A DNA stretch of 64,000 nt from Acidobacteriota bacterium (GCA_025456205.1 JALOLA010000010.1:5338-69337), one strand, 5' to 3'. Shown: positions 18,138 through 58,006, counted from the stretch's first letter. Numbers and translations: made by a program. Notes: generated from the sequence alone by a model not told the origin.

Positions 18138-18139
18138 AG

Positions 18140-20394: not shown

Positions 20395-20810
20395 TGCACG
20401 AGGGAGCGGTCGCCGCCGCCATCATCCAGGGCGTCATCGAGGTCCTGGAGAGGGAAAAGGTCGCCGCCGCGAAAACCGTGACCGTGCTCATCGGCCGCCT
20501 GCACCACGTGGTGCCCGACGTGCTGCAGAACCACTATCGCATCCTGAAAAAAGAATATCCGGCCCTGATTCGCTCCAAATTGGCGATCGAGATCGCGCCG
20601 ATACGCGTCACCTGCCGAGCCTGCGGCCGCGAAACCGGGATCGAGCGGCCCGAGTTCGCCTGCGCCCTGTGCGGCTCCATCGACATCGAGATCACCGGCG
20701 GCAGGGAGATGCACCTGAAAGAAGTCATCGGCACAGGGCGCACGGCAGACGGCGAGCCATCGAAGAATAAAGACAAAGTAAAAAGGCAAAAGGCAAAAGG
20801 CAAAAGTTAG
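20394..20810 (+). CDS. hypA: hydrogenase nickel insertion protein HypA
   Basis: ATGA overlap with hypE. MHEGAVAAAII... N-terminus. Zn site CRACG...CALCGS. The Lys-rich tail is encoded by the AAAAGGC repeat. Confidence 0.9.
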   Translation: MHEGAVAAAIIQGVIEVLEREKVAAAKTVTVLIGRLHHVVPDVLQNHYRILKKEYPALIRSKLAIEIAPIRVTCRACGRETGIERPEFACALCGSIDIEITGGREMHLKEVIGTGRTADGEPSKNKDKVKRQKAKGKS

Positions 20811-20912: not shown

Positions 20913-21731
20913 CTAAAGGCAGCGATAGGTGAACGTGGCCGTGTTGGAGGCCATTTTTTTCAGGGGCTCGAACAGTTCCACCCGCAGGGTCACCGTGCTC
21001 GTCCCGTGCTGGATGGCGGCCGCCACCTCTGCCGGCAGCAGGATCTCCTTGGTGATGGTGAGCGTGCCGGGATTGGGGGTCACGACAAAATCCGGGTTCC
21101 TGTATTCCTTGCGGTAGCCGGCGCTCGGGTGCTCCAGGACGATCTTGAACATTTCCGTGACCTTCAGGTTGCAGCGGAAGGCGATGCGGGCAGAGATCTT
21201 GACCTGGGTGGCGGCGCTGCAGTTCCCCTGGTATTCGGCGGGCAGCAGCGTGAGCGTAATGCTCGTGATCCCGTACGGCACTTCGATGTGCTTGGTATTG
21301 TTGTTCTCGTTGAGCTCGGGGATCTTGTTGTCCTGGTCCATGCCGACCACGATGCCGATGGCGTTGGCGTGCTCCATGCGCATCCGTTCGGCAGGGACGT
21401 CGCAGGGCATTTCCATGGTGACGACCTGCCCATTGCCCGGGAGATTGAGGCTGAACGGGCGGGTGCGGTAGACCAGGCCGTAACCGGCGATCTGCAGGCC
21501 CATCTCGACATTTCCCGAAAAAGGCGAGGGCGAGTTGTTGCGGATCTTGGCGAAGATGCGGTGGGTGGCGCTGAATTCGATGTCGACGACCTCGAAATCG
21601 GGCTTGATGGTCAGATTGGGCTTCCTGGGCTCGAACTGCTGGGCATGGATCCCGACGGCCAGCAGCAGCAGGGCGGCGAAAAGCCCGAGGCACAGGGCAC
21701 GGCGGTTGGGCATGGATGCTATCTTGATCAT
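20913..21731 (-). CDS. secreted CARDB-like domain protein
   Basis: Signal peptide ...LCLGLFAALLLLAVGIHAQQ. CARDB hallmark DQDNKIPELNENNNT. Confidence 0.6.
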   Translation of the reverse strand: MIKIASMPNRRALCLGLFAALLLLAVGIHAQQFEPRKPNLTIKPDFEVVDIEFSATHRIFAKIRNNSPSPFSGNVEMGLQIAGYGLVYRTRPFSLNLPGNGQVVTMEMPCDVPAERMRMEHANAIGIVVGMDQDNKIPELNENNNTKHIEVPYGITSITLTLLPAEYQGNCSAATQVKISARIAFRCNLKVTEMFKIVLEHPSAGYRKEYRNPDFVVTPNPGTLTITKEILLPAEVAAAIQHGTSTVTLRVELFEPLKKMASNTATFTYRCL

Positions 21732-21927: not shown

Positions 21928-22611
21928 TCAGCATTGAAAGTTCGGCTTGTTCCTGAGGATCTCGATCCAGCTCTCCATGCCCGCTCCGCTGTGGGCCGAT
22001 ACTTCGACCACGGCGCAGGCCGGGTTCACTTTTTTAATATTCCCCCGCAAGGCAGCAAGCGAAAAATTCTTCAGGGGCAGGAAATCGGTCTTGGTGACCA
22101 GACACAGCTGCGAGACCTGGAAGGCCAGCGGGTATTTCAGCGGCTTGTCCTCGCCCTCGGTGACGCTGATCAGCAGGACGTTCATGTGGGCGCCGACGTC
22201 GAACTCGGCCGGGCAGACCAGGTTGCCGATGTTCTCGACGAACAGGTAGTCCATGCCGTTGGTCCCCAGCTCGGCTACGGCCGCCTGGATCCAGGAGGCC
22301 TCGAGGTGGCAGTCGCCGCCGAATGGGCCGGTATTGATCTGGTAGGCCTGGATGCCCAGCTTCTGCAGGCGCTCGGCGTCCAGCGTGGTCTGGATGTCGC
22401 CCTCGATGACCTTGATGCGCTTGCCCAGCCTCCTGACCGTCTCCTCGACCAGGGTGGTCTTGCCCGATCCCGGCGAACTCATCAGGTTGACGAAGAAAAT
22501 GTTTTTTTCCTTCAGTTCCCGGCGGAGGCCCGCGGCGACGGCGTCGTTGGCCTTGAGCAGCTTCTGCATGACGGTGATTTTCTTCGTATCCATGGGCGTT
22601 TTATAACCCAT
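21928..22611 (-). CDS. hypB: hydrogenase nickel incorporation GTPase HypB
   Basis: P-loop SSPGSGKTTL, EGDIQT and CHLEA motifs. Start chosen at M30 of the ORF; ATG 22593 is also possible. Confidence 0.9.
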   Translation of the reverse strand: MGYKTPMDTKKITVMQKLLKANDAVAAGLRRELKEKNIFFVNLMSSPGSGKTTLVEETVRRLGKRIKVIEGDIQTTLDAERLQKLGIQAYQINTGPFGGDCHLEASWIQAAVAELGTNGMDYLFVENIGNLVCPAEFDVGAHMNVLLISVTEGEDKPLKYPLAFQVSQLCLVTKTDFLPLKNFSLAALRGNIKKVNPACAVVEVSAHSGAGMESWIEILRNKPNFQC

Positions 22612-22691
22612 CCCCGCAGATAAAGCAAGCGCCGGGCCCGGGGCAAATCCGTTGCGCTCTCCAGGCCCGTGCCTGGCGCCGGTCGCCGCAC

Positions 22692-22719
22692 TTGACAACG
22701 TGGTTTAAATTAATATAAT
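22692..22719 (+). promoter_or_regulatory. consensus sigma70 promoter of the hydrogenase operon
   Basis: TTGACA, 16-nt spacer, TATAAT. The -10 ends 15 nt before ATG 22735, giving a very short leader. Confidence 0.6.
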
Positions 22720-22734: not shown

Positions 22735-24171
22735 ATGACAAACAACATACAAACCATCATCCTACTGACCATTTTTGTGCCCATCGTCGGTTCCTTCGCC
22801 ATCCCCATCGCCGGCCTGGTCTCCAAGCGCGCCCGATCGTTCCTGTCGGTGCTGCTCGCCCTGGCCACCACCGCCTCCTCCATGCTGCTGATCCCCTTCG
22901 CGCTCAGGGGAGGTGAGCTGGCCTTCCGCAAGACACTGGCCATGGGCCTCGACTTCATCGTTGTGGCCGATGCCCTGTCGGTCTTCATGGCCGTGGCCTC
23001 CTCCTTCATCGGCGCCCTGATCGTCATCTACTCCCTGGGCTACATAAGCCACGAGGAGAACCAGAGCGAATACTACTTCATCGTCCTGCTCTTCATCGGC
23101 GCCATGATGGGCCTGGTCTTCTCCGCCAACCTGGTCTTCATGTACCTGTTCTGGGAGATCGCCGCCATCGCCTGCTGGCGCCTGATCGGCTTCTACCGGG
23201 TGCGCGAGTACGTGCTCAAGGCCGACAAGGCTTTCCTGGTGACGTTCTTCGGCGCCGTGTTCATGCTGCTGGGCTTCATCGTCGTGTTCAACCAGACCGG
23301 CACCTTCGACCTCACCGCCATGCGCGGCACGGCCATCCCCGGCATCGCCGTGCTGCTGATCCTGCTGGGCATGTTCTCCAAGTCGGCCACCGTGCCGCTG
23401 CATACCTGGCTGCCCGACGCCGGCGTGGCACCCACCACCGTCACCGCCCTGCTGCACGCGGCGGTGCTGGTCAAGATCGGCGTCTACGCCTATGCCCGCC
23501 TCTTCAGCTATACCTTCAAACTGCCCGAGGGCTGGCAGCAGGCCATCCCCATCCTGGTCGTGTTCTCCAGCCTGGTGGCCGCTGCGGCCGCCGTCGTGGA
23601 GACCGACCTGAAGCGCATCCTGGCCTACTCCACGGTCAGCCAGATCGGCTACATCTTTCTCGGCTTCGCCGTGCTCAACCCCATGGGCGTCTCCGGCTCG
23701 CTGCTCTTCATCCTGATGCACGGGCTGGCCAAGGCCGGCCTCTTCCTCTGCGCCGGCATCGTCATCCACGCCACCCACCAGCGCGACATCCGCCAGATGG
23801 GAGGCATGATCAAGACCATGCCCTGGACGGCCGTCGCCTATATCTTCTGCGCCTTCTCGGTCATCGGCATCCCGCCCTTCGGGGGCTTCTTCTCGAAATT
23901 CATGGTCATCATGGCCACCGTGCAGTCGGGCCGCGTCTGGGTGGCCGCCGCCGCGCTCTTCGCGGCGCTTCTGACCATGTACTACCTGTTCAGGGTGTTC
24001 AGCGCCGTCTTCATGGGCGAGGCCAGGTCCGACCATAAGGAAGGGACGCGCTCCATGGTCTTCGTGGTCGTGGTGCTGGCCGTCCTCTCCCTGCTGGCCG
24101 GCCTCTTCGTCGCCTATCCCACTCAGCTGGCCAATGTCGCCAGCGGCGAAATCTTAAGGTGGATGAAATGA
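22735..24171 (+). CDS. antiporter-like subunit (NuoN/M / MrpD family)
   Basis: 14-TM proton_antipo_M pattern (…PLHTWLPDAGVAPTTVTALLHAAVLVKIG…). Length 478 aa. Confidence 0.9.
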   Translation: MTNNIQTIILLTIFVPIVGSFAIPIAGLVSKRARSFLSVLLALATTASSMLLIPFALRGGELAFRKTLAMGLDFIVVADALSVFMAVASSFIGALIVIYSLGYISHEENQSEYYFIVLLFIGAMMGLVFSANLVFMYLFWEIAAIACWRLIGFYRVREYVLKADKAFLVTFFGAVFMLLGFIVVFNQTGTFDLTAMRGTAIPGIAVLLILLGMFSKSATVPLHTWLPDAGVAPTTVTALLHAAVLVKIGVYAYARLFSYTFKLPEGWQQAIPILVVFSSLVAAAAAVVETDLKRILAYSTVSQIGYIFLGFAVLNPMGVSGSLLFILMHGLAKAGLFLCAGIVIHATHQRDIRQMGGMIKTMPWTAVAYIFCAFSVIGIPPFGGFFSKFMVIMATVQSGRVWVAAAALFAALLTMYYLFRVFSAVFMGEARSDHKEGTRSMVFVVVVLAVLSLLAGLFVAYPTQLANVASGEILRWMK

Positions 24172-26033
24172 ACCCGCAAAACCTGTTGATCCCGATCCTG
24201 CTGCCGCTGCTGCTGGCCCTCTTCTCCTTCCTGCTGCCCAGGGGCGTCAAGCGGCTGCGCGAGGTCGTCTCCGTCCTGGGGGCGGCCCTCTTCGTCTATG
24301 TCGCCGTCGCGTTCTTCGGGCAGAAGGAGACCTTCTTCACCCTGCCCTGGCTGGGCCACGGCATCAACTTCGAGCTGCGCCTATACGGGTTCAGCCAGTT
24401 CATCCTGATCGCCCTGAGCGGCTTCACTTTCCTGATCACGCTCTATTCCACGGTCAGGATGGCCGGCGACCCGCGCATCCGCGAGTATTACGGCTACCTG
24501 TTCCTGACCTCGGCCATGGCCGCCGGCGCCGTGCTGGCCAACAACCTCGTGCCGCTGGTCTTCTTCTGGGAAGGCCTGCTGATCACTTTGTACGCCCTGA
24601 TCACCATCGGCGGCAAGGCCTCGCACCGCACCGCCGTCAAGGCCTTCCTCATCGGCGGCTTCTGCGACTTCTGCATGATCCTGGGCATCGCCATCCTCTG
24701 GTCGCAGACCGGCACCCTGCGCATGTCCGACATCTCGGTCGTGCCCCAGGGGCTGACCGCGGTCAGCTTCTACCTGATGATGATCGGCGCCATCGGCAAG
24801 GCCGGCTCCATGCCGTTCCATACCTGGATCCCCGACGCCGCCGTCGACGCGCCGGTCGCGGTCATGGCCTTCATCCCGGCCGCGCTGGAAAAGCTGCTGG
24901 GCATCTACATGCTGGCGCGCATCTGCCTCGACCTCTTCCAGCTCGAGGTCAACAGCGCCCCCAGCCTGGTGCTGATGACCGTCGGCGCCCTGACCATCGT
25001 CCTGGCCGTCTTCATGGCCCTGATCCAGAAGGACCTGAAGAAGCTGCTCTCCTACCACGCCGTCTCGCAGGTCGGCTACATGATGCTGGGCATCGGCACC
25101 GCCGTGCCCATCGGCATCGCCGGCGGCATCTTCCACATGATCAACCACGCCATGTACAAGAGCGGGCTGTTCCTGGCCGCCGGCTCGGTCGAGCAGCAGG
25201 CAGGCACCACCGAGCTGAAGAAGCTCGGCGGGCTGGCCAAGGCCATGCCCCTGACCGCGCTGGGCTTCATCGTCTGCGCCGCGGCCATCTCGGGCATCTG
25301 GCCCCTGAACGGCTTCGTCTCCAAGGAGATGGTCTTCCACGGCTCCTACGAGACCGGCTACACCATCTTCACCATCGCCGCCTGGCTGGGGGCCATCCTC
25401 ACCTTCGCCTCCTTCCTCAAGGCCGGCCACTCGGTGTTCTTCGGGCCGCGCGGCCTGGAGACCGCCGCCGTGAAGGAAAGCAAGAGCCCGATCACCATCC
25501 CCATCCTGGTCCTGGCCGGCCTCTGCGTCCTGTTCGGCGTCTACAATTCGCTGCCGCTGAAGCTCTTCATCCAGCCCATCCTGGCCGGCCACGCCGCGCC
25601 GGGCGAGCACATCGACTTCACGGCGCACGCCCTGGCCGTCTTCAACCCCATCGCCCTCATCTCCATGGGCTGCCTGCTGCTCGCCTTCGGCCTGCATCTC
25701 TTCGGCTTCAAGCGCGGCGGCAACAAGGCCTACCTCGCTTCCGAGCCCATCCACCGCCTGCCCGTCCTGCACACCCTGTATGACTGGGCCGAGGCCCGCG
25801 TCTTCGACCTCTACGAGCAGGGCATCAAGTTCATCCAGAGCCTGTCCAAGTTCCTGTTCCGCTTCGTCGACCGCCCCATCGACGCCTTCTACGAGAAGGT
25901 CGTCGTCGGCGCCGGCCGGGCCTGCACCGGAGCGCTCAAGGCCGCTCACAACGGCCTGTACGCCAACTACCTGGCCTGGACCGTCGGCGGGCTGGTGATC
26001 ATCGTCTGGGCCATCGGCGCCCTGCTGCGCTAG
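24168..26033 (+). CDS. NuoL-like antiporter subunit with C-terminal lateral helix and terminal TM
   Basis: PFHTWIPDAAVDAPVAVMAFIPAALEK core. C-terminal ...FVDRPIDAFYEKVVVGAG... followed by a final TM. ATGA overlap with the upstream gene. Confidence 0.88.
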   Translation: MNPQNLLIPILLPLLLALFSFLLPRGVKRLREVVSVLGAALFVYVAVAFFGQKETFFTLPWLGHGINFELRLYGFSQFILIALSGFTFLITLYSTVRMAGDPRIREYYGYLFLTSAMAAGAVLANNLVPLVFFWEGLLITLYALITIGGKASHRTAVKAFLIGGFCDFCMILGIAILWSQTGTLRMSDISVVPQGLTAVSFYLMMIGAIGKAGSMPFHTWIPDAAVDAPVAVMAFIPAALEKLLGIYMLARICLDLFQLEVNSAPSLVLMTVGALTIVLAVFMALIQKDLKKLLSYHAVSQVGYMMLGIGTAVPIGIAGGIFHMINHAMYKSGLFLAAGSVEQQAGTTELKKLGGLAKAMPLTALGFIVCAAAISGIWPLNGFVSKEMVFHGSYETGYTIFTIAAWLGAILTFASFLKAGHSVFFGPRGLETAAVKESKSPITIPILVLAGLCVLFGVYNSLPLKLFIQPILAGHAAPGEHIDFTAHALAVFNPIALISMGCLLLAFGLHLFGFKRGGNKAYLASEPIHRLPVLHTLYDWAEARVFDLYEQGIKFIQSLSKFLFRFVDRPIDAFYEKVVVGAGRACTGALKAAHNGLYANYLAWTVGGLVIIVWAIGALLR

Positions 26034-26042
26034 GGAGGAGCC

Positions 26043-27524
26043 ATGTTATTCCTATTCATCATCGTCCCGCTGTTGCTGGCCGGTCTGCTGCCCCTGCTGG
26101 GCAAGCTCTCGAAGCGCTTCCTGCCCGACCTGCTGGCCAGCGCCGCCATGCTCTTCCTGCTCGTGCTCTCGGTCGTCAGCGCCAAGCCGCTGATCGCCGG
26201 CGGCGGCATCATCCAGCAGGCCTTCTGGTTCGGCGCGCCGCTGAACATCCGCCTGCTGCTCGACGGCTTCAGCCTGTTCATGCTCTTCACCATCTCGCTG
26301 GTCAGCTTCGCCGTCACCCTGTACTCGATCAATTACATGGACCACTACGGGGCCAAGGCCAATTACTATGCCCTGCTGCTGGTGATGATCGCCGGCATGA
26401 ACGGCCTGGTCCTGAGCAGCGACCTGTTCAACATCTACATTTTCCTGGAAATGGCCGCCATCGCCTCCTACGCCCTGGTCGCCTTCGGCCGCGGCCATGA
26501 GGAGCTCGAGGCATCGTTCAAATACCTGATGCTCTCCGCCGTCGCCTCGGCCTTCATCCTGTTGAGCATCGCCGTCATTTTCGGCATGACCGGCGGCGTC
26601 AGCTTCGGCACCGTCGCCCAGGGCCTCAAGACCCTGAACGTCAAGTACGTGGTCGGCGTCTGCAGCGGCCTCTTCCTGGCCGGCTTCGGCCTGAAGGCGG
26701 CCCTGGTGCCGTTCCACTCCTGGCTGCCCGACGCCCACCCCTCGGCGCCGGCGCCGATCTCGGCCATGCTGTCGGCCGTGCTGATCAAGGTTTCCGGCGT
26801 CTACGCCATGACGCGCATCTTCCTGAACGTCTTCGGCCTTACGCCGGCGCTGACCACGGTGCTGACCGTCATGGGCGTCGTCTCGATCTTCGTCGGCGCC
26901 CTGGCAGCCCTGGGCCAGAACGACATCAAGCGCATGCTGGCCTACTCCTCGATCAGCCAGATCGGCTACGTGGTGCTCGGCCTGGGCATCGGCACCCCCC
27001 TGGGCATCATCGGCGGCCTTTTCCACCTGTTCAACCACGCCCTGTTCAAGTCGCTGCTCTTCTTGAACGCCGGGGCCGTCGAGCAGTCGACCGGCACGCG
27101 CGCGCTGGACAAGATGGGCGGCCTGGCCAAGGTCATGCCGCTGACGGCGACCACTTCGGCCGTCGCCTCGCTCTCCATCGCCGGCGTGCCGCCGCTGAAC
27201 GGCTTCTGGAGCAAGCTGCTGATCATCATCGCCCTGGTGCAGGCCAAGATGCACGTCCTGGCCGTGCTGGCCGTGCTGGGCAGCGTGATCACCTTGTGGT
27301 ACTACCTGGTGCTGCAGCGCTATGCCTTCTTCGGCAAGCTGAACGAGGCGTGGCAGGGGGTCAGGGAAGCCCCGTTCTGGATGTCGGCCTCGATGGTCCT
27401 GCTGGCCCTGCTCTGCGTCGTCACCGGCCTGGTCTTTCCCTTCGCGATCCACTCGTGGCTGCAGCCCGCCGCCGACGTCCTGGGCCAGGGCATCGGCGTG
27501 GCCCTGAACTTCATCGGATTTTAG
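26043..27524 (+). CDS. antiporter-like subunit (NuoM / MrpD family)
   Basis: PFHSWLPDAHPSAPAPISAMLSAVLIKV core. RBS gggagga. Length 493 aa. Confidence 0.9.
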   Translation: MLFLFIIVPLLLAGLLPLLGKLSKRFLPDLLASAAMLFLLVLSVVSAKPLIAGGGIIQQAFWFGAPLNIRLLLDGFSLFMLFTISLVSFAVTLYSINYMDHYGAKANYYALLLVMIAGMNGLVLSSDLFNIYIFLEMAAIASYALVAFGRGHEELEASFKYLMLSAVASAFILLSIAVIFGMTGGVSFGTVAQGLKTLNVKYVVGVCSGLFLAGFGLKAALVPFHSWLPDAHPSAPAPISAMLSAVLIKVSGVYAMTRIFLNVFGLTPALTTVLTVMGVVSIFVGALAALGQNDIKRMLAYSSISQIGYVVLGLGIGTPLGIIGGLFHLFNHALFKSLLFLNAGAVEQSTGTRALDKMGGLAKVMPLTATTSAVASLSIAGVPPLNGFWSKLLIIIALVQAKMHVLAVLAVLGSVITLWYYLVLQRYAFFGKLNEAWQGVREAPFWMSASMVLLALLCVVTGLVFPFAIHSWLQPAADVLGQGIGVALNFIGF

Positions 27525-27533
27525 GAGAAGCGC

Positions 27534-28019
27534 ATGCATCTTTTTCTATTGATCGGATTGGTCGCCTTTTCCATCATGGCCGTCCTGAGTCGCGACCTGC
27601 TGAAGAGCGCCATCAGCCTGGCCGTGGCCAGCATTTTCCTGGCCCTGGTCTTTTTTCACCTGGGCGCCGTCTATGCCGGGGTGTTCGAGCTCTCGGTGGT
27701 CGCCGGCCTGATCACCGTCCTCTTCATCACCGCCATCGCCCTGACGCGCAACGACGGCGAGGTGGCGGAAAGCAAGCGCCACCGGATCGTCTTCCCGCTC
27801 TTCTTCCTGGCCCTGGCCGTGCTCGACATCCTGGTGATGAGGAAGCTGCTGGGCCAGATCCCCGCCATCCAGGGCGCCGGGAGCGGCACGTTCAGCCAGG
27901 TGCTGTGGAACCAGCGCACCTTCGACCTGGTCGGGCAGGTCGGGGCCATCTTCGCCGGCGTGCTGGCCGTGCTGGCCCTGTTCCGCCACGACAGCCCCAA
28001 GGGGGATAGCCATGAATAA
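27534..28019 (+). CDS. NuoJ-like membrane subunit
   Basis: LGAVYAGVFELSVVAGLITVLFITAIAL parallels NuoJ LGAyFaGalEiiVYaGAImVLFvF. The C-terminal TM is retained. Confidence 0.7.
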   Translation: MHLFLLIGLVAFSIMAVLSRDLLKSAISLAVASIFLALVFFHLGAVYAGVFELSVVAGLITVLFITAIALTRNDGEVAESKRHRIVFPLFFLALAVLDILVMRKLLGQIPAIQGAGSGTFSQVLWNQRTFDLVGQVGAIFAGVLAVLALFRHDSPKGDSHE

Positions 28020-28320
28020 CCTGTGGATACTGAACATGGGCTTCGTCGCCCTGCTCATCGGCATCGGCCTCTACTGCCTGCTGGCCATGAAGAACACGGT
28101 CAAGCTGCTGATCGGCGTCGAGATCATCGCCAAGGGCGTCACCCTGGCCCTGGTGGCCAGCGGCTACGCCCGCGACAACCTGATGCTCGCCCAGGCCATG
28201 GTCATCACCGTCATCGTCATCGATGTCGCCGTCATCGCCACGGCGCTGGCCCTGATCATCAGCATCAACCGCCATACCAAGAGCCTTGACGTCAGCAAAC
28301 TGACCCAATTGAAGGGATAA
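28012..28320 (+). CDS. NuoK / MrpC-like membrane subunit
   Basis: 102 aa with 3 TMs. GIGLYCLLAMKNTVKLLIGVEIIAKGVTL contains the conserved Glu in TM2. Confidence 0.85.
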   Translation: MNNLWILNMGFVALLIGIGLYCLLAMKNTVKLLIGVEIIAKGVTLALVASGYARDNLMLAQAMVITVIVIDVAVIATALALIISINRHTKSLDVSKLTQLKG

Positions 28321-28322
28321 CC

Positions 28323-28658
28323 ATGAAAAACATTATGGAGATCTTCCTCTCGCCGCCGCTGGCCTTTCTGGTCTTCCTGGCCATTTTCTACATCATCTAT
28401 TTCCTGGCCGGGCGCCTGGCCCCCAAGCTCAACCCCGTCGGCGGCAAGCTGAAAAGCTACGCCTGCGGCGAGGACATTCCGGGCAGCAAGCTGCAGTTCG
28501 GCTACCGCCTGTTCTTCTTCATCGCCCTGTTCTTCACCATGATGCACGTGGCGGCGCTGGTGGTAGCGACCTTGCCGTCTGGCCCCATCGCCTATTTCGG
28601 ACTGTTTTACCTGGGCATGATCTTCCTGTCCGTTGCCGCCCTGGTCACGAGGGATTAA
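28323..28658 (+). CDS. NuoA-like membrane subunit
   Basis: KSYACGEDIPG...FFFIALFFTMMHVAAL parallels NuoA YECG...FYLVAMFFVIFDVEAL. Length 111 aa. Confidence 0.65.
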   Translation: MKNIMEIFLSPPLAFLVFLAIFYIIYFLAGRLAPKLNPVGGKLKSYACGEDIPGSKLQFGYRLFFFIALFFTMMHVAALVVATLPSGPIAYFGLFYLGMIFLSVAALVTRD

Positions 28659-28659
28659 C

Positions 28660-29085
28660 ATGATCGAACGTCTGGTCCATTGGTCACGGGTCAAGTCCCC
28701 TTGGGTCCTGCATCTGAACGCCGGCGGCGGCTGCAACGGCTGCGACATCGAGATCCTGGCCGCGCTCATGCCGCGCTTCGACCTGGAACGCTTCGGCGTG
28801 CAGCTGAAAGGGACGCCGCGCCACGCCGACGTCATGATCTGCACCGGGGCCGTCACCCTGCAGAACCGCGACCGCGTCCTGCGCGTCTACGAGCAGGTCC
28901 CCGACCCGAAGTTCGTGGTGGCGGCCGGCGCCTGCGCCATGGCCGGCTGCGTCTACCGCGGCTCCTATCACACCCTGATCGGCATCGACCAGCTGCTGCC
29001 GGTCAACGCCTACGTTCCCGGCTGTCCCTTCCGCCCCGCCGCCCTGATCGATGCGGTGGTCAAGCTGCTCAATTCGGTGAAATGA
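28660..29085 (+). CDS. group 4 [NiFe]-hydrogenase small subunit (NuoB-like)
   Basis: Four cluster Cys: GGGCNGCDIE, AAGACAMAGC, VPGCPFRP. Confidence 0.92.
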   Translation: MIERLVHWSRVKSPWVLHLNAGGGCNGCDIEILAALMPRFDLERFGVQLKGTPRHADVMICTGAVTLQNRDRVLRVYEQVPDPKFVVAAGACAMAGCVYRGSYHTLIGIDQLLPVNAYVPGCPFRPAALIDAVVKLLNSVK

Positions 29086-29086
29086 G

Positions 29087-29563
29087 GTGATCATGAACAA
29101 CGAAGCGATCTTGGAAAAGATAAACGCCGGGCTCAAGGACAAGGTCCTGGAGGCGGCCGCGGCAGCGCCGCGGCGCATCAACCTCAAGGTGGACCGCCAG
29201 CACCTGCTGGGCGTCCTGGCCTACCTCAAGGAGCAGTTCAACATGGCCCACCTGGCCACGATCAGCGGCGTCGACCTGGGCGAGTCCTTCGAGGTGATCT
29301 ATCACCTGTCCAATGACGCCGTCACGGTGAACGTGCGCATGTTGACGCCGCGCCAGGAACCCAGGATCCCCAGCGTCTGCTCCCTGATCCCCGGGGCGAT
29401 CCTCTACGAGCGCGAACTGCAGGACATGTTCGGCATGGTGGTGGAGAACATCCCCGACCCGCGGCGCCTGCTCCTGTGCGATGATTGGCCCGAGGGGCAA
29501 TATCCCCTGCGCAAGGATTGGAAGTTCGAACGCCCCGCCGAGATCATCCCCGGAGGTAAATAA
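29087..29563 (+). CDS. NuoC-like (30 kDa) hydrogenase subunit
   Basis: ...HLATISGVDLGESFEVIYHL...ERELQDMFGMV... is the NuoC/HycE-N pattern. Confidence 0.88.
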   Translation: MIMNNEAILEKINAGLKDKVLEAAAAAPRRINLKVDRQHLLGVLAYLKEQFNMAHLATISGVDLGESFEVIYHLSNDAVTVNVRMLTPRQEPRIPSVCSLIPGAILYERELQDMFGMVVENIPDPRRLLLCDDWPEGQYPLRKDWKFERPAEIIPGGK

Positions 29564-30683
29564 TGGAATACAAGGTTTCCCTGGGACCGCAGCACCCCGC
29601 CCTCCACGAGGCCGTCAGCCTGCGCATGACCCTCGAGGGCGAGGTCATCCGCGACGCCGACCTGAAGCTCGGCTACAGCCATCGCGGCATCGAGAAACTG
29701 GCCGAGGAAAGGAGCTTCATCCAGAACATCTACCTCACCGAGCGCATCTGCGGCATCTGCTCCCACTCCCATACCACCTGCTTCACCCAGGGGGTCGAGC
29801 AGCTGATGGAGCTTGTTCCCGCCCGGCGCGGCCTCTTTATCCGCACCCTGATCGCCGAGCTGGAGCGCGTGCACAGCCACCTGCTGTGGCTGGGCGTCGC
29901 CGGCCAGGAGGCGGGCTTCGAGTCGTTCTTCATGTACACCTGGCGCGACCGCGAGGTCGTCCTGGATATACTGGAATGGATCTCGGGCAACCGCGTGCAC
30001 TACGCCATGAACATCTTCGGCGGCGTGCGCCGCGACATCGACGAGCTGCAGAAGAAGAAGATCCTCGACTCCCTCGACCTGCTGAGGAAGCGCACCGATT
30101 ATTATCTCAACCTCGCCGCCAGCGAGCCGACCTTCATCGGCCGCCTGGCCGGCGTCGGCAAGCTGAGCAAGGAGCAGGCCATCGCCCTCTGCGCCGTCGG
30201 CCCCACCCTGCGCGCCTCGGGCGTGCCCATGGACGTGCGCAAGGACGACCCCTACGCCTCCAAAGCTACAACATGATCGAATACCTGCTCACGAACCTGC
30301 CCGAGGGGCCCTTCAAGGTCAAGGCCCCGCGCAAGGTCAAGCCCAACGAGGTCTATTCGCGCTACGAGGCCCCGCGCGGCGAGAACGTCCACTACATCAA
30401 GAGCAACGGCTCGGACAAGCCCGAGCGCCTGAAGGTCCGCGCCCCCACGCTGGCCAACTACCCGGCTACCGTCGCGATGCTCAAGAACGGCTTCATCGCC
30501 GACATCCCGCTGATCTTCGCCGCCATCGATCCCTGCATCTGCTGCGCCGAGCGCCTGGTGCAGCTGGACGACGCGCGCAGCGGTCGGAGCAACGTCCTGT
30601 CCTTCAGCCAGCTGCGGGCCATGGCGAACGCGCATTACAAGAAAGTCGATCTTACAAAAAAGGAAGCAGCATGGCCATTTTAA
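29563..30683 (+). pseudogene. group 4 [NiFe]-hydrogenase large subunit (NuoD-like), interrupted by an out-of-frame internal deletion near 30259
   Basis: The N-part (frame of 29563) carries RICGICSHSH and stops at 30274-30276. The C-part (frame of ORF 29481..30683) carries EAPRGE...DPCICCAER. About 28 residues between the PY..Y and LPxGP motifs are missing. Confidence 0.8.
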
Positions 30684-31639
30684 AGCCCATCCTCTACATT
30701 CTTGTCTACCCGGGTCTGATCTTCCTGATGGTCTATTCCACCTTTTGCGAGTGGTTCGACCGCAAGCTCTACGCCCGCATGCAGAACCGCATCGGCCCCC
30801 TGCACACCGGGCGCTCCGGCATCCTGCAGCCGGTGGCCGACATCATCAAGCTCTTCGCCAAGGAGGACATCGTTCCGGAAAAAGCCGACAAGCACATGTT
30901 CACCGCCCTGCCGGTATTCGCCCTGGCCATCATCTGCACGGCGGCGCTCTACCTGCCCGTCTGGCACTACAGCGAGGCTCCCTCGTTCATCTCCTTCCCC
31001 GGCGACCTGATCGTCGTGGCCTACCTGCTGACCCTGCCGACGCTGATCTTCTTCCTGGCCGGCTGGCACTCCACCAACTATTTCTCGGCCATCGGCGGCG
31101 TGCGCGTCCTGACCATGCTCTTCGGCTACGAGATCCCGCTGCTGCTGGCCCTGCTCAGCCCGGCCGTGCTGGCCGGCTCCTGGCGCATCCTGGAGATCGC
31201 CGTCTTTTTTCAGAACCGGCCGCTGCTGATGCTGGTCAACATCATCGGCTTCTTCATCGCCCTGATCGCCCTGCAGGCCAAGCTGGAGCGCGTGCCCTTC
31301 GACATCCCCCACGCCGAGACCGAGATCGTCGGCGGTCAATTTACCGAGTACTCGGGCAAGAAGTTGGCCTTCTTCCGCCTGCTCGGCGACATCGAGATGG
31401 TCGTCGGCGCCGGCCTGATCGCTGCCGTCTTCCTGGGCGGCTTCCCGGGCGGCCTGCTGCCCGGGCTGGCCTGGTTCATCGTCAAGACCCTCTTCATCGT
31501 CTTCCTGCTGGCCGCCATGCGCGCCGCCACCAGCCGCATCCGCATCGACCAGATGATCAGCTTTTCCTGGCGCTGGCTGGCGCCCCTCGGCGTGTTGCAG
31601 CTGTTCATCGTCATCATCATCAAGGGGAATATGCCATGA
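30671..31639 (+). CDS. NuoH-like membrane subunit
   Basis: KLYARMQNRIGPLHTGRSGILQPVADIIKLFAKED is the NuoH/HycD signature. Confidence 0.92.
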   Translation: MAILKPILYILVYPGLIFLMVYSTFCEWFDRKLYARMQNRIGPLHTGRSGILQPVADIIKLFAKEDIVPEKADKHMFTALPVFALAIICTAALYLPVWHYSEAPSFISFPGDLIVVAYLLTLPTLIFFLAGWHSTNYFSAIGGVRVLTMLFGYEIPLLLALLSPAVLAGSWRILEIAVFFQNRPLLMLVNIIGFFIALIALQAKLERVPFDIPHAETEIVGGQFTEYSGKKLAFFRLLGDIEMVVGAGLIAAVFLGGFPGGLLPGLAWFIVKTLFIVFLLAAMRAATSRIRIDQMISFSWRWLAPLGVLQLFIVIIIKGNMP

Positions 31640-31995
31640 GCCTCAAATTCGCCCCGTTCCTGCCCGAGCTGCTGCGCAGCCTGTTCAAGAAGCCGGTCAC
31701 GGTCGTCTATCCTTTCCAGAAGGAGGCTGTGGCCGCGGGCTTCCGCGGTACCGTCGTCTTCGACCCCGCCAAGTGCATCGGCTGCAACATCTGCGTCAAT
31801 GACTGCCCGGCCGAGGCCATCGACATCATCCGCGTGTCCGAGACCGAGAAGAAGTTCAAGATGATCCTGCATAACGACCGCTGCATCCACTGCGCCCAGT
31901 GCGTCGACTCCTGCCCCACCAAGACCTACCACATGGACCTGGAATACGAGGTTGCCGCCTTCAGCCGTCACAACCTGAAGATCGAGTACAAGTAA
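31636..31995 (+). CDS. NuoI-like 2x[4Fe-4S] ferredoxin subunit
   Basis: CIGCNICVNDCP and CIHCAQCVDSCP. ATGA-type overlap with the NuoH-like gene. Only the last 119 codons of ORF 30745..31995 are coding. Confidence 0.9.
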   Translation: MSLKFAPFLPELLRSLFKKPVTVVYPFQKEAVAAGFRGTVVFDPAKCIGCNICVNDCPAEAIDIIRVSETEKKFKMILHNDRCIHCAQCVDSCPTKTYHMDLEYEVAAFSRHNLKIEYK

Positions 31996-32087
31996 GACCG
32001 CCCATCGCCGCCAAAAAACCCGCCGCTCACAGACCCGCCGCCGGGCCGGGAGCGGCGTTTCCCTGCCGCGCGGATTTCCGGGAAGCG

Positions 32088-32585
32088 TTGCGTGAGCAGC
32101 TTCGCGGCTCCCAACGCGTCTTCGTCCTGGGCATCGGCATGGACTGGAAGAGCGACGACCGCCTGGGACCGGCCCTGGCGCGGGCCCTGGCGCAGGCGCT
32201 GCCGGCCGAGCCGCGCCTGAGCGTCGTCAGCGGCGGCGAGGCCCCGGAAAACTTCACCGGCGCCATCCGCGCCTTCGCGCCCAGCCATGTCATTCTGCTC
32301 GACGCCGTGGACCACGGCCGGCCTCCCGGCACGGCCTTCCTGGTCGACGAAGGCGCCATCACCATGGGCGACATGACCAGCCACCGCCTGCCCCTGAAGC
32401 TACTGATGCGCTTCCTGGCCGCGAGCATCCCCTGCCGGGTCATCCTGGTCGGCGTGCAGCCGCGGACGCTGCTGCCGGGCCGGCGGCTTTCCTCTCCCGT
32501 GCGCAGGACCGTCGCGCCCCTGGCCGCGTTCTTAGCCGAGGAGATCACCTTCGCTTTGGCGGGACTCCAGGACGATGCAAAGTGA
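32088..32585 (+). CDS. hydrogenase maturation endopeptidase (HycI/HyaD family)
   Basis: VFVLGIGMDWKSDDRLG parallels GxGNxxxxDDGxG, followed by ILLDAVDHG. The TTG 32088 start is a guess; no ATG is available. Confidence 0.75.
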   Translation: MREQLRGSQRVFVLGIGMDWKSDDRLGPALARALAQALPAEPRLSVVSGGEAPENFTGAIRAFAPSHVILLDAVDHGRPPGTAFLVDEGAITMGDMTSHRLPLKLLMRFLAASIPCRVILVGVQPRTLLPGRRLSSPVRRTVAPLAAFLAEEITFALAGLQDDAK

Positions 32586-32682: not shown

Positions 32683-33447
32683 CTACTGCGCGGTGAGGCC
32701 GAAGGTGATGGAGACGGTGAAATAGATGGGTCGGGGCACGCCGTCGACGATATAGGGCTCGTAGAGCCACTGGCGCACGGCCGCCCGCGCCGCCTCATGG
32801 AAGATCGGATGGCCGCTGATGATGCGCACGCGGCTGACCCGGCCGTAGATGTCGGTCATGGCCTCGACGATCACCACCCCCTGCAAGCGGTTGGCGAAGG
32901 CGTCCGCAGGGTATTCGGGCTTGACCTCGCGGAGCAGCCTGGGGACCTTCTTGCCGCTGACGAAGAAAGGCTGCTCGCCGGGCAGGGCGCCGCCCAGCAC
33001 GCCGCCCAGCACGCCGCCGATGACGCCGCCCTCGATGCCGCCCTCGACGCCGCCGGGCACGCCCCAGGGAACGCCGCCCTCCACCCCGAAATCAACGCCC
33101 TCGTCCTCTTCGATGGTCACCGGCACCTCGATGGGCGCGACCAGCTTGCCGAAGAAGACAGGGGGCTCGGGATCTTTTTTTTCCTCGGCCGCCTTGGCCG
33201 CCCTGGAGCCGCGCCCGCGGCCGAAGGGCGGGGGGGGCGGCGGCGGCGGGGCCGGCAGGGAGGGGGCGATGATCAGCACGTTGGTCACCTGGATCTCGGG
33301 GAGGTTCGTATCGGCCAGCAGCAGGGGGACCAGCACCAGGGCGGCGATGGCCAGCAGGTGGACGAGCAGGGAGATGGGCATGAGCAGCCAGACGCGGCCG
33401 CGCGCCTGCTGGTCCTGAGGAGTGAGCAGCGATTCATCCAGCATCAA
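32683..33447 (-). CDS. tonB: energy transducer TonB
   Basis: N-terminal TM, Pro-rich PSLPAPPPPPPPP, Gly-rich GGV repeats, and C-terminal TonB_C (KPEYPADAFANRLQGVVIVEAMTDIYGRV...). Confidence 0.88.
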   Translation of the reverse strand: MMLDESLLTPQDQQARGRVWLLMPISLLVHLLAIAALVLVPLLLADTNLPEIQVTNVLIIAPSLPAPPPPPPPPFGRGRGSRAAKAAEEKKDPEPPVFFGKLVAPIEVPVTIEEDEGVDFGVEGGVPWGVPGGVEGGIEGGVIGGVLGGVLGGALPGEQPFFVSGKKVPRLLREVKPEYPADAFANRLQGVVIVEAMTDIYGRVSRVRIISGHPIFHEAARAAVRQWLYEPYIVDGVPRPIYFTVSITFGLTAQ

Positions 33448-33543
33448 AAACCTCGTCTCATCCCTGTTTTCCGTTCACCAATAAGACGTTAGGATACCTC
33501 ATTTTAGCTGAAAAATCCAGTCTGGCGCGGGAAATCCCCGTTG

Positions 33544-35940
33544 TCAGCGTTCCAGGATGATGGGCGCGGCCAGCGCTTCGACGTCGACGGCCAGGATGGG
33601 TGAGTTCTCCATGATCCTGAATTTCTGGACCTTTTCCTCGACGATCAGGGTGCGGCTGTACTTGCCCTCGGCGCTGCTGACGCTGACGGAGACCGGGAAC
33701 ACGAAATCGCTGTCCTCCTGGGAAAAGGTGACCTCGGCCTCGGGGCCGCTGATCGCGACCCGGTAGCGCACCCGGGGCAGCTTGCGCGCATACACCCAGT
33801 TGTTGAAGAATTTCTGCAGCCGGCCCTCGCCGCGGCTGACCTGCTGGATGAAGCGCGAGGAGACGAGGCTCTGGTGCTTGAAGTCGACCAGCACCTGGCG
33901 CAGGCGGCCCAGCACCTCCTCCTCTCCCAGCATCTCCTTGAGCATCATGAAAACCAGCGCCGCCTTGTTGTAGACGATGCTCTGGAACGTCGGCAGGTCG
34001 TCGCTGAGGTTGGCGATGCGCCGGCCGTAGATGATGGGGCCGGCATCGTTGCTGCGCAGCACCCAGCGCTTGGCGCCGGCCAGGACCCTGCGGAACGCGC
34101 TCGCCCCCAGGGTGCTCTCCAGGTACAGCATGGTGGAGAACTGCGCCAGGCCCTCGGTCAGCCACTGGTCCTGGTAGGTTCTCCAGGAAACGACGCCTCC
34201 CCACCACTGGTGGGCCAGCTCGTGGACCAGGTTGTCGCGGTTGACGTCGGTGAACACCACCGGGCTGTCGCTGCGCAGGCGCCGCACCATGCTGATGTCG
34301 TCGTCGATGATGTTGCCGCCCAGGAGGTTGAAGATCACGAAGCCCTGGTGGCTCCAGCCGCCGTAGTTCTGCCAGCGGCGCAGCAGCAGGTTCAGTTCCG
34401 GCAGGTCCAGGGGACCGAACTTTTCCAGCAGGAAATCGACATAGCCCTTGATGGCCTCCACGGAAAAAGAATCCCTTAGACGCAGCTTCGGATTGCCGAA
34501 GACCTGGACCGGCAGCGCGCCGGGGACGGTCGCCAGTTTTCCAAAATTGCCGCAGACGAGCGACACGCCCTTGCTGCCCGGGCTGTCGAAGACGAACTCG
34601 GTGCGCTCGCCCACCTTGCGCCTGGAGCTCAGGCTCCCCGAGGCCAGGCACTCCAGGGGCAGGGGCAGCGAGACCTTCAGCCGGCTTTTGAAGAAATGCT
34701 GGCCCGGGTTGGGGTAGAAGTTCTGGTCGCGGTCCAGGACGAAGAAATCGTCGACGTTCTTGGCCGCGCGGCCGCGCAGGATGACCCTGGCCAGGTCGCC
34801 GCCCTCGCTGCTGGGCTCGATGACCCCGGCGTAGTAAAAACCGAACCGCTTCAGCCCCTCGCCCAGCAGGTAGTAGGTGTCGTCGCGGTGGAACAGCTGC
34901 AGCTCGTGCTGCTGCGACCTGCCGAAGCCCTTGACGACCAGCTTGGGGTCCAGGTTGACGGTCTTGACGTTCGATGGCTCCTTGAAGTCAAGGACCGAGG
35001 TCGCGGAAAGAAAGCCAACCTGGGGATTGAGAAAGAGGTTCAGCTGCAGGTTCTCCAGCTCGTCGACGCCCGCTTGCGTGAACTTGAGGCCCTTCACGGC
35101 ATTGTAGCTCAGGTAGAACTTGTTTTCCGGCAGCAGCACCAGGCTGGTGTCAGGCGAGTTGCCGCTGTTGAAGATGTAGCGGAAATGCGACTTGCCCGGC
35201 CGGCGGTGGAAGATGGCCGTGTTGAATTCGGGGGCGAAGGGGAAGTACCAAAGCTCGTCGAAGTAGGAGACGGGCATCCCCCAGCGCTCCTGGAATATTC
35301 GGTAGAGGGCCAGCACCTCGTCGTCGGCGGGCGCTGCGGATGGCTCGGGCTCGGGCAGGCCGCCCAGCAGATCCTCGGGGCGGCTGAAAATGAAGACGCC
35401 GGCCCGGGCTTCCTTGGCCAGCGTGTCGCTGCGCTCGAGGCGCAGCAGGGTCAGCCGCTCCTCCTCGGAATCAGGCCGGATGCGGAACTCCCAGTCGCCG
35501 CTGAACAGGAACACGTTGCCCATGGGCAGGCCGCGGTAGACGAAGCCCTTTTTAAAATGGATCTCCGCGTCGCCCATGCGCAGCCTGCGGTCGCTGAGGG
35601 CATAGCGGGCGAAGGTGCGGATGAAACCCAGCGGCTTGATGGTGCGCTTCAGCGCCAGGCCGCGGTAGAAGCCGCCCTCCTGCTCGAAGGTGATCTCGCC
35701 GATCTCGGCGAAGCCCGCGAAGCGGGCGAAGAACATCAGGTTGTTGGGCCGCACCAGGCTGAAACCGACCGCCTGGCACTCCTGGAAGTAGGCGGCCAGC
35801 TGCAGGTGCGAATCGTCCCTGAAGCCGGCGGCCAGGGCCGGCCAGTCCTTTTTCTGTATCGCCGTCTCCAGCGATTCCAGGGCCGGGGCCAGGCCCGGGA
35901 GGGCCAAAAGCAGGAACAAGGCCAATATTCGTTTTTTCAT
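33544..35940 (-). CDS. M1-family zinc metallopeptidase (aminopeptidase N-like), secreted
   Basis: Signal peptide, HELAHQWWG followed by WLTEGLAQF (HEXXH-E). Length 798 aa. Confidence 0.88.
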   Translation of the reverse strand: MKKRILALFLLLALPGLAPALESLETAIQKKDWPALAAGFRDDSHLQLAAYFQECQAVGFSLVRPNNLMFFARFAGFAEIGEITFEQEGGFYRGLALKRTIKPLGFIRTFARYALSDRRLRMGDAEIHFKKGFVYRGLPMGNVFLFSGDWEFRIRPDSEEERLTLLRLERSDTLAKEARAGVFIFSRPEDLLGGLPEPEPSAAPADDEVLALYRIFQERWGMPVSYFDELWYFPFAPEFNTAIFHRRPGKSHFRYIFNSGNSPDTSLVLLPENKFYLSYNAVKGLKFTQAGVDELENLQLNLFLNPQVGFLSATSVLDFKEPSNVKTVNLDPKLVVKGFGRSQQHELQLFHRDDTYYLLGEGLKRFGFYYAGVIEPSSEGGDLARVILRGRAAKNVDDFFVLDRDQNFYPNPGQHFFKSRLKVSLPLPLECLASGSLSSRRKVGERTEFVFDSPGSKGVSLVCGNFGKLATVPGALPVQVFGNPKLRLRDSFSVEAIKGYVDFLLEKFGPLDLPELNLLLRRWQNYGGWSHQGFVIFNLLGGNIIDDDISMVRRLRSDSPVVFTDVNRDNLVHELAHQWWGGVVSWRTYQDQWLTEGLAQFSTMLYLESTLGASAFRRVLAGAKRWVLRSNDAGPIIYGRRIANLSDDLPTFQSIVYNKAALVFMMLKEMLGEEEVLGRLRQVLVDFKHQSLVSSRFIQQVSRGEGRLQKFFNNWVYARKLPRVRYRVAISGPEAEVTFSQEDSDFVFPVSVSVSSAEGKYSRTLIVEEKVQKFRIMENSPILAVDVEALAAPIILER

Positions 35941-35958
35941 TGCTGGTATTGTAACCCT

Positions 35959-35987
35959 TTGCAGGCAAAATTAAAATATGGTACAAT
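35959..35987 (+). promoter_or_regulatory. sigma70 promoter of GWxTD module 1
   Basis: TTGCAG, 17-nt spacer, TACAAT. Lies 27 nt before ATG 36014. Confidence 0.5.
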
Positions 35988-36013
35988 AGTTTATCCAGAT
36001 CCGTCATAATAAA

Positions 36014-57976: not shown

Positions 57977-58006
57977 ATTATACTAATATATCAGGGATAA
58001 TGTCAA
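57977..58006 (-). promoter_or_regulatory. sigma70 promoter of the FGE-domain gene
   Basis: On the minus strand: TTGACA, 18-nt spacer, TATAAT, within an AT-rich patch. Confidence 0.5.

Follow-up and report, generated by a model that had tools for sequence, protein, structure and literature searches.

A Probable Group 4 [NiFe]-Hydrogenase Operon with a Complex I-Type Subunit Set in Aminicenantes

Introduction

The superfamily that includes complex I together with the membrane-bound [NiFe]-hydrogenase Mbh contains two assemblies. The peripheral arm sits on the side of the A/J/K subunits in complex I and NDH-1, and on the side of the antiporter-like subunits in Mbh and the sulfane reductase Mbs (PMC8165549). 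How one docking assembly gave rise to the other is a standing evolutionary question. Enzymes that combine a [NiFe] site with the full complex I subunit set are obvious test cases, and so far only the archaeal Hfo has been pointed out, with none purified. Here, an operon located at positions 22735–32585 (+ strand) of a 64,000-nucleotide (nt) stretch of DNA from an Acidobacteriota bacterium (GCA_025456205.1 JALOLA010000010.1:5338-69337; hereafter the window) is described. With a probability of about 0.7, this locus encodes the structural subunits of an energy-converting [NiFe]-hydrogenase of group 4 that is membrane-bound, has a complex I-type subunit set, and belongs to Aminicenantes.

In 2011, no described group 4 enzyme had a recognised NuoA or NuoJ (Moparthi and Hagerhall, 2011; PMC3144371). 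Later work on the Mbh structure treated MbhD plus MbhE as the equivalent of NuoJ, and MbhI as that of the N-terminal part of NuoA (PMC8679088). Subsequently, "Hfo," a [NiFe] hydrogenase whose 11 subunits make up the Fpo/Nuo set, was reported from Bathyarchaeia, Pyrodictium delaneyi, and Candidatus (Ca.) Methanomethylicus, was placed in HydDB group 4g, subgroup 4g-6, and was put forward expressly as an enzyme that closes the gap to complex I (Loh, Herve and Brune, 2021; PMC7886697). As a class, group 4g of HydDB is polyphyletic, its members cluster loosely, and it is uncharacterised.

A first-pass annotation of the window, made from the sequence alone, had assumed that the described group 4 enzymes lack NuoA- and NuoJ-type subunits. 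This premise was true in 2011, was partly changed by the Mbh and Mbs structures, and was then overturned by Hfo. The same annotation proposed an intermediate architecture between membrane-bound hydrogenases and complex I. Such an architecture is indeed found, in that the complex I core set occurs together with [NiFe] ligands, but it is not undescribed, given the publication of archaeal Hfo in 2021. As for whether the identical architecture is already catalogued as a group 4 subtype, this is the case for the subunit set (archaeal Hfo), whereas the gene order differs. The novelty of the locus lies in its being a bacterial variant that is widespread, has a conserved gene order of its own, and combines Mbh-like with complex-I-like subunits in a mosaic. 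No paper linking Aminicenantes to this architecture was found in the literature consulted, which was covered in part.

Operon Organization and Subunit Content

The operon contains twelve genes that run in one direction and abut or overlap one another. Their order is ant-antL-ant-J-K-A-B-C-D-H-I-hycI, in which ant is an antiporter-like subunit and antL is an antiporter-like subunit of the NuoL/MrpA type. Based on Pfam, NCBIfam, and profile searches, the 11 structural subunit types match the complex I core subunits A, B, C, D, H, I, J, K, L, M, and N. The window has a G+C content of 63%, and the third-position G+C content (GC3) of the operon is typical of coding sequence at that composition. Most open reading frames (ORFs) of the operon have GC3 values of 0.87–0.97, the exception being the over-long ORF at 31899–32585 (0.79), which holds the protease gene.

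Pfam and NCBIfam scans detected no Mrp E/F/G, NuoE/F/G, FdhF, CooS, or FpoF in the operon, and Mrp E/F/G, NuoE/F/G, FdhF, and CooS were also undetected among the approximately 30 larger ORFs scanned in the window. Next to the operon, too, these scans revealed no electron-input module (NuoEFG, FdhF, CooS, or FpoF). The sodium module of the Mrp E/F/G/B type (MbhA/B/C/F) likewise gave no Pfam or NCBIfam match, and all 12 operon genes are accounted for. The first-pass annotation had described the same packed, co-directional array of twelve genes, the lack of MrpE/F/G and NuoE/F/G homologs, and a gene order unlike nuoA-N (three antiporter-like genes followed by J-K-A-B-C-D-H-I), all of which agree with the present results.

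The promoter-like site TTGACA-16-TATAAT that had been proposed for the array is present at 22692–22719 (+) and matches the sigma-70 consensus at 12 of 12 positions. Perfect TTGACA-N16-18-TATAAT sites number three in the 64-kb window, compared with none in 100 shuffles. Only 15 nt separate the end of the -10 hexamer from the operon's first ATG, which implies a very short leader, and ahead of this ATG there is no visible Shine-Dalgarno sequence. The other two perfect sites lie at 57977–58006 (-) and 60218–60246 (+).

Peripheral Subunits, Membrane Anchor, and Class Assignment

The NuoD-like [NiFe] large subunit is encoded at 29563–30683 (+), as identified by the Pfam models Complex1_49kDa and NiFeSe_Hases and by alignments of homologues. 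The gene is disrupted in the window (see below). Both [NiFe] motifs are present, namely RICGICSHSH (L1) and DPCICCAER (L2), and in contigs that are otherwise identical to the window the two motifs and their four cysteine ligands are encoded in one ORF. The published motif definitions are C[GS][ILV]C[AGNS]xxH for L1 and [DE][PL]Cx[AGST]Cx[DE][RL] for L2 (PMC7886697). After the Arg of the L2 motif, the large subunit has a tail of 42 amino acids (aa), in line with the C-terminal extension of about this length noted previously.

The other peripheral subunits, the membrane anchor, and the endopeptidase named in the first-pass annotation could all be assigned by Pfam. The NuoB-like small subunit (28660–29085, +; 141 aa; Oxidored_q6, 8e-29) carries a hydrogenase-type CxxC (GGGCNGCD) rather than the tandem CC associated with cluster N2 of complex I. 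In NuoB of complex I, tandem cysteines are found at cluster N2. The NuoC-like subunit (29093–29563, +; 156 aa; Complex1_30kDa, 3e-31) is encoded by a gene separate from D, a boundary also supported by gene calls in the identical contigs. The NuoH-like membrane anchor (30671–31639, +; 322 aa; NADHdh, 2e-83) is followed by a NuoI-like, ferredoxin-type subunit (31636–31995, +; 119 aa; Fer4_7 and Fer4) that has two CxxCxxCxxxCP motifs for 2x[4Fe-4S]. The last gene of the operon encodes a maturation endopeptidase of the HycI type (32088–32585, +; 165 aa; HycI, 4e-14; gene calls in the identical contigs). Upstream of the operon, profile searches identified the maturation genes hypF-hypC-hypD-hypE-hypA (15843–20810, +). 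A hypB-like GTPase gene (21928–22698, -; cobW/HypB/UreG domain, 7e-18) is divergent from the operon. Between hypA and hypB, a gene for a 272-aa protein with a weak CARDB match (20913–21731, -) interrupts the maturation cluster.

These features, together with the adjoining hypFCDEA and hypB genes, HycI in the operon, the 42-aa tail, NuoB- and NuoH-like subunits, and at least one antiporter-like subunit, place the locus among the group 4 [NiFe]-hydrogenases. Many database entries for its relatives carry the name "NADH-quinone oxidoreductase subunit A/D/L," which could be taken to mean that the encoded enzyme is no hydrogenase and belongs instead with complex I-like or Ehr-like oxidoreductases, with quinone or some other compound as electron acceptor. 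This is very improbable, since homologues keep all four [NiFe] cysteines as well as both motifs, the C-terminal tail is of the cleavable kind with HycI in the operon and a full hyp set adjoining, and the small subunit has CxxC in place of the complex I tandem CC. Complex I itself contains the full A, B, C, D, H, I, J, K, L, M, and N core that is present here, but it has a NuoD without the [NiFe] cysteines and a NuoB with tandem cysteines, whereas this locus has the four cysteine ligands and GGGCNGCD. Ehr complexes are reportedly hydrogenase-related complexes that lack the [NiFe]-binding cysteines, and assignment to Ehr was rejected because these cysteines are conserved across the homologues. 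A Hyf-type assignment was also rejected because C and D are separate and a formate module is absent.

Within group 4, the locus resembles Hfo (4g-6) in having homologues of FpoABCDHIJKLMN and [NiFe] motifs without an Mrp sodium module, but the Fpo/Nuo gene order of Hfo is found neither in the window nor in any untruncated related locus. It differs from group 4d Mbh in that the Mrp E/F/G/B-type module is missing, J is a single protein with five transmembrane (TM) helices, and A is a full-length protein with three.

Comparisons with solved structures indicated that the subunits have mixed affinities. The B subunit is closest to MbhJ (159 bits), followed by HycG and NdhK (119 bits each), and D is closest to MbhL (272 bits), followed by HycE (262) and Nqo4 (216). 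For H, in contrast, the best matches are Nqo8 (152 bits), NuoH (147), and NdhA (140), compared with 90 for MbhM and 69 each for MbsM and HycD. Full-length relatives of the A subunit were found solely in complex I-type enzymes (89-member profile search). Judged by sequence similarity, the enzyme is thus a mosaic in which B, D, J, and K are nearest to Mbh, and H is much nearer to complex I.

Small Membrane Subunits

The 111-aa subunit encoded at 28323–28658 (+) is a NuoA/ND3 homologue with three TM helices and a long TM1-TM2 loop, as assigned by its family profile and Pfam PF00507. The protein itself has only a sub-threshold match to the NuoA Pfam model. It belongs to a small, distinct family (284 representatives at E ≤ 0.001 among 1.8 billion sequences), whose members are approximately 100–115 aa long and share an invariant Y-x-C-G-E-D-x-P-G-x-K in the TM1-TM2 loop, which resembles the Y-E-C-G-F-D of ND3. 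A narrow profile built from close homologues gave marginal matches to Protein Data Bank (PDB) entries (E ~0.04), and the broader family was needed. The profile of 89 diverse members matched ND3, Nqo7, NuoA, and NdhC at E-values of 8.6e-8 to 1e-5, colinear over positions 7–105. The same profile matched MbhI only at E 0.025, over positions 7–52 (TM1 plus the loop). Moreover, 66 of the 89 members match PF00507. In the AlphaFold2 (AF2) model, 26 residues form a loop between the first and second of three helices, with a predicted local distance difference test score (pLDDT) of 69; Foldseek with this model gave no meaningful match, an uninformative outcome for an isolated three-helix membrane protein at that pLDDT. 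From the profile evidence, the protein is considered a true full-length homologue of NuoA, and the earlier NuoA assignment stands.

The 161-aa subunit (27534–28019, +; five predicted TM helices) is of the NuoJ type and equivalent to a fusion of MbhD and MbhE. It passes the Pfam thresholds of both Oxidored_q3 (41 bits) and MbhD (31 bits), as do all 21 of the family members compared, and its C-terminal part has weak matches to MbhE. When its profile was compared with the PDB, the first three helices matched MbsD (3e-10) and MbhD (5e-10) better than Escherichia coli NuoJ (1.4e-5). The family alignment shows Glu52 in TM3 to be invariant, and this residue lines up with MbsD's conserved glutamate, Glu58 (PMC7684303). 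Based on these matches, the protein is regarded as a fused MbhD+MbhE, i.e., the NuoJ architecture. The previous description of a full-length NuoJ-like protein is therefore accurate for the fused five-TM type, with the qualification that the N-terminal half is nearer to MbsD/MbhD than to E. coli NuoJ and that both Pfam families are matched.

The 102-aa subunit (28012–28320, +; three TM helices; Glu37) is of the NuoK/MbhG/MrpC type (Oxidored_q2, 5e-20), as had been recognized. Among PDB entries, MbhG is the closest (5e-13), followed by NdhE (7e-9) and Nqo11 (6e-8). A weak NCBIfam match to the C-terminus of HyfE was also found.

Antiporter-Like Subunits

The first antiporter-like subunit (22735–24171, +; 478 aa; Pfam Proton_antipo_M, 5e-69) has no C-terminal extension, and its best NCBIfam matches are NuoL and HyfD. 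The second (24168–26033, +; 621 aa) is of the NuoL/MrpA type, with residues 7–616 aligned to positions 6–609 of the 615 in the NCBIfam NuoL model. The third (26043–27524, +; 493 aa; Pfam, 8e-75) is MrpD/MbhH/NuoN-like, with PRK08376 as its best NCBIfam match (368 bits). Alignments indicated that all three retain the Glu of TM5 and the Lys residues of TM7, TM8, TM11, and TM12. Except for the NuoL type, these subunits cannot be assigned one-to-one to L, M, and N.

The presence of three such subunits, with a NuoL-type lateral helix and a terminal TM helix in the 621-aa protein, had been predicted previously and is borne out by the NuoL alignment, the AF2 model, and Foldseek. The AF2 model of this protein (pLDDT 81; predicted TM-score, pTM, 0.80) contains TM15, a lateral amphipathic helix, and TM16. 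The lateral segment spans approximately residues 526–593, in which shorter helices precede a 46-residue helix (548–593), and TM16 comprises residues 598–620. Foldseek returned full-length matches to NuoL (TM-scores of 0.76–0.80 in both normalisations) and to MrpA. The 621-aa subunit also aligns end to end with NCBIfam PRK08668, which is named "NADH dehydrogenase subunit M" and is presumably the model for MbsH' of Pyrococcus.

Disruption of the Large Subunit Gene

In the window, the gene for the NuoD-like subunit is split over two frames, with the N-terminal part at 29563–30276 (residues 1–232) and the C-terminal part at approximately 30258–30683 (135 residues). The Pfam 49-kDa model is covered at positions 3–117 and 198–271, with no coverage in between, and homologues of this subunit have 400–401 aa. 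Protein and DNA alignments indicated that 85 bp, equivalent to 28 codons plus 1 nt (AIYDEIPFEVCTADSCDVLGRAVVRVKELI), are missing between positions 30258 and 30259. The lost codons are conserved ones. L1 and L2 are thus not in one ORF here because the 85-bp deletion shifts the frame. The first-pass annotation correctly reported a NuoD-like protein with both motifs, but it overlooked this frameshifting deletion and treated the gene as intact.

An exact-protein look-up of the NuoH-like product retrieved three public contigs (L089, L090, and L091; from two JGI samples and one NCBI metagenome-assembled genome, MAG) that are 99.9–100% identical to the window on both flanks. L090 matches the window at 100% identity over 1,678 bp to one side of the gap and over 6,381 bp to the other. 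Each of the three contigs holds the 85 bp and encodes an intact large subunit of 401 aa. The deletion junction and the window-specific flank were also sought in JGI metagenome contigs, with no match. Furthermore, L091 has a 48-bp gap in the NuoK-like gene (2306–2500, compared with 28183–28230 of the window), and a frameshift is found in the NuoJ-like gene of L013 (L013:7952-8410), suggesting that local indel errors or heterogeneity are common in sister MAG assemblies of the operon. Because the otherwise identical contigs are intact, the 85-bp deletion is most likely an artefact of assembly or sequencing, or a rare variant.

Alternatively, the deletion may be a real inactivating mutation and the operon a dead locus in the source genome. 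Consistent with this, the deletion both removes 28 conserved codons and shifts the frame, and its flanks are otherwise free of errors relative to L090. Nonetheless, this explanation is unlikely given the intact 401-aa gene in three independent public contigs, the comparable indels in related MAGs (K of L091 and J of L013), and the intact state and high GC3 of the remaining operon genes. In addition, all 83 related loci compared are continuous across the 30258/30259 point, and the junction itself lacks microhomology.

Conservation among Related Loci

A scan of one genome per GTDB species for relatives of the large subunit yielded 475 stretches. The best 80 of these 475, which were taken up, have 69–100% identity and are mostly labelled as Aminicenantes, Ca. 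Saccharicenans, or Acidobacteriota, with some from WOR-3. For the comparison of gene order, 83 loci were fetched, mostly from Aminicenantes MAGs. The order ant-antL-ant-J-K-A-B-C-D-H-I-protease is found in 45 of these loci. Another 12 have the same ant-antL-ant-J-K-A-B-C-D-H-I order with the protease match undetected, and one has a complete array plus an extra antiporter-like match upstream. The search of public genomes and MAGs for the same synteny, as had been suggested, therefore recovered 58 complete arrays among the 83 loci, with one order in every untruncated locus. The remaining loci show the same order cut by contig ends, except for one fragment in which H was undetected.

More distant relatives include L086, in which the NuoA-like subunit is a remote family member, the order is kept, and the large subunit has the [NiFe] L1 motif. 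In L084 (L084:3073-11408), a two-antiporter variant with [NiFe] motifs has the order J(200 aa)-K-ant-ant-A-B-C-D-H-HycI, indicating that the NuoA-containing hydrogenase family has several architectures. The L084 operon is preceded by genes for two unannotated small proteins. In public databases, the subunits are named "membrane-bound hydrogenase subunit alpha," "NADH-quinone oxidoreductase subunit A/D/L," or "hypothetical protein."

Comparison with Known Systems

Hfo has the same 11 subunit types, retains L1 and L2, and lacks the Mrp sodium module as well as NuoEFG or FpoF for electron input. Like the enzyme described here, it is presumed to be coupled to ferredoxin and to translocate ions. 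The two differ in that Hfo is archaeal with the Fpo/Nuo gene order, whereas the present operon is bacterial with three L/M/N-like genes followed by J-K-A-B-C-D-H-I-protease.

Mbh of Pyrococcus furiosus (group 4d; PDB 6CFW) provides the nearest sequences for B, D, K, and the N-terminal half of J, namely MbhJ, MbhL, MbhG, and MbhD. It also has ferredoxin-type input via a NuoI-like subunit, as is proposed here, and a large subunit that is processed at its C-terminus. However, Mbh has one antiporter-like subunit instead of three, a split MbhD+MbhE instead of a single five-TM J, and an Mrp-type module (MbhA/B/C/F) that is not found here. In addition, MbhI has two TM helices with a short lateral helix and matches only TM1 and the loop of NuoA, whereas the locus encodes a three-TM NuoA. 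The peripheral module of Mbh docks on the antiporter-like subunit (PMC8165549), which probably differs from the arrangement in this enzyme. The sulfane reductase Mbs/Mbx (PDB 6U8Y) likewise contains two or more antiporter-like subunits, of which MbsH' bears a lateral helix and TM16 (PMC7684303), and MbsD is the best match of J. Mbs differs in having no [NiFe] site, in having an Mrp module, and in that the interface loop lies within MbsH' (PMC7684303) rather than in a separate NuoA.

The 11-subunit complex I-type enzymes (cyanobacterial NDH-1, Fpo-like enzymes, and bacterial Nuo11) have the same subunit set, including the three-TM NuoA, the five-TM NuoJ, and the NuoL lateral helix, and H is closest to Nqo8, NuoH, and NdhA. 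They also have no NADH module and receive electrons from ferredoxin (PMC8165549). In contrast to the present locus, they have lost the [NiFe] cysteines, reduce quinone or methanophenazine, and differ in gene order; the cysteines occur here along with a CxxC small subunit, the protease, and the hyp genes. Hyf (E. coli hydrogenase-4, group 4a) is linked to formate dehydrogenase through HyfA and FdhF, and this operon has no formate module. The likeness to Hyf includes the weak match of K to the C-terminus of HyfE. In Hyf, NuoC and NuoD are fused as HyfG and no NuoA or NuoJ has been recognised (PMC3144371), whereas C and D are separate here.

Proposed Mechanism and Docking of the Peripheral Module

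The gene content, subunit homology, metal-ligand and channel residues, maturation genes, and operon conservation are shown by the data; ferredoxin as the partner, the direction of the reaction, the ion that is moved, the stoichiometry, and how the subunits are arranged are inferred. In the proposed mechanism, reduced ferredoxin, for example from fermentation, would probably donate electrons to the NuoI-like subunit with its two [4Fe-4S] clusters. The electrons would then cross the NuoB-like subunit by way of its single cluster and reach the NuoD-like subunit's [NiFe] site, which would occupy the position of the complex I quinone pocket and at which protons would be reduced to H2. Coupling may proceed from the interface loops of D and H and the TM1-2 loop of NuoA to an "E-channel" formed by H/A/J/K. 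From there, it may reach the three antiporter-like subunits, which would be clamped by the NuoL-type lateral helix and would move H+ (or Na+) across the membrane. An analogous working has been proposed for archaeal Hfo (PMC7886697). The enzyme is probably reversible, and reduction of ferredoxin by H2, driven by the ion gradient, may also take place.

Docking of the peripheral module is most likely complex I-like, on the A/J/K side, and not directly on an antiporter-like subunit. This arrangement is favoured because of the separate three-TM NuoA, the complex-I-like NuoH, and the lack of Mrp subunits covering the J/K face. Only complex I-type enzymes have a three-TM NuoA, of which TM2-3 put the peripheral module on the J/K side (PMC7684303; PMC8165549). 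Alternatively, the same subunits may be arranged as in Mbh/Mbs, with the peripheral module and the NuoH-like anchor beside an antiporter-like subunit and J/K at the far end, so that the enzyme would resemble Mbs minus the Mrp E/F/G/B sodium module. This topology would fit the fact that Mbh/Mbs subunits are the top solved-structure matches for B, D, J, and K, as well as the end-to-end alignment of the 621-aa subunit with PRK08668 ("NADH dehydrogenase subunit M"). Yet the interface loop of Mbs comes from TM15-16 of MbsH' without a separate NuoA (PMC7684303), whereas a separate three-TM NuoA is conserved here. Furthermore, H is clearly closer to Nqo8 (152 bits) than to MbhM (90) or MbsM (69), and the Mrp E/F/G/B genes that would cover the J/K face are absent. 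An Mbh/Mbs-type topology is accordingly regarded as improbable.

Several observations weigh against the reading of the locus as a complex I-like, ion-translocating hydrogenase. The catalytic subunit cannot be made from the window sequence as given, and enzymes of the group 4g/Hfo type are biochemically uncharacterised (PMC7886697). The acidic FDxE of NuoA TM2 is not kept in the 111-aa protein, which has MHVA there. J, K, B, and D are nearer in sequence to Mbh/Mbs than to complex I, leaving some room for the Mbh/Mbs-like arrangement. With the potentials quoted for ferredoxin (about -500 mV) and H+/H2 (-414 mV), the gap of ~86 mV would provide ~17 kJ per H2 under standard conditions, which appears too little for four pumped ions. 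The contrast between ~17 kJ and four ion paths points to a lower stoichiometry, exchange in some of the modules, or operation mainly in reverse.

In the last case, the physiological direction would be H2 uptake, with the ion gradient driving ferredoxin reduction; this concerns direction only and is compatible with the hydrogenase reading. It has been proposed for Hfo (PMC7886697), and the four putative ion paths appear to exceed what electron transfer from ferredoxin to H2 can energise. On the other hand, no CO2-fixation or other ferredoxin-consuming module adjoins the operon among the larger window ORFs scanned. Uptake is also disfavoured by the fermentative lifestyle described for Aminicenantes and Ca. 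Saccharicenans, which requires an H2-evolving sink for ferredoxin. H2 uptake is therefore a possible but less favoured direction.

As a tentative reading, the Aminicenantes-type enzyme may be a bacterial lineage apart from archaeal Hfo, in which Mbh-like B, D, and J/K would be combined with a complex-I-like NuoH, a true NuoA, and complex I orientation. If so, the "flipped" docking step that lies between hydrogenases of the Mbh/Mbs type and complex I would have a living representative, one common enough in MAGs and enrichments to allow a structure to be solved. The operon is strictly conserved in many Aminicenantes and WOR-3 genomes, and a bacterial enzyme of this kind would be a tractable target for multimer modelling, metatranscriptomics, and cryo-electron microscopy. 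It would also sharpen the energetic puzzle of a ~17 kJ reaction paired with four putative ion paths.

Genomic Neighborhood

Elsewhere in the window, three large ORFs (1287–2783, -; 36993–38030, +; 58032–59456, -) have coding-like GC3 and match no Pfam family at E ≤ 1e-5. A hybrid-cluster protein of the prismane/CODH family (61738–63402, +; 547 bits) is encoded 29 kb from the hydrogenase, with no evident link to it. Downstream of the operon, the region at 32683–36973 (-/+) encodes a TonB C-terminal protein, an M1 peptidase, and a GWxTD-domain protein, and it is syntenic in L089 and L090. In L001 and L002, only the TonB-M1 pair recurs downstream, and L003 has a different neighborhood. The differing neighborhoods in distant relatives such as L003 indicate that the operon is embedded differently across lineages.

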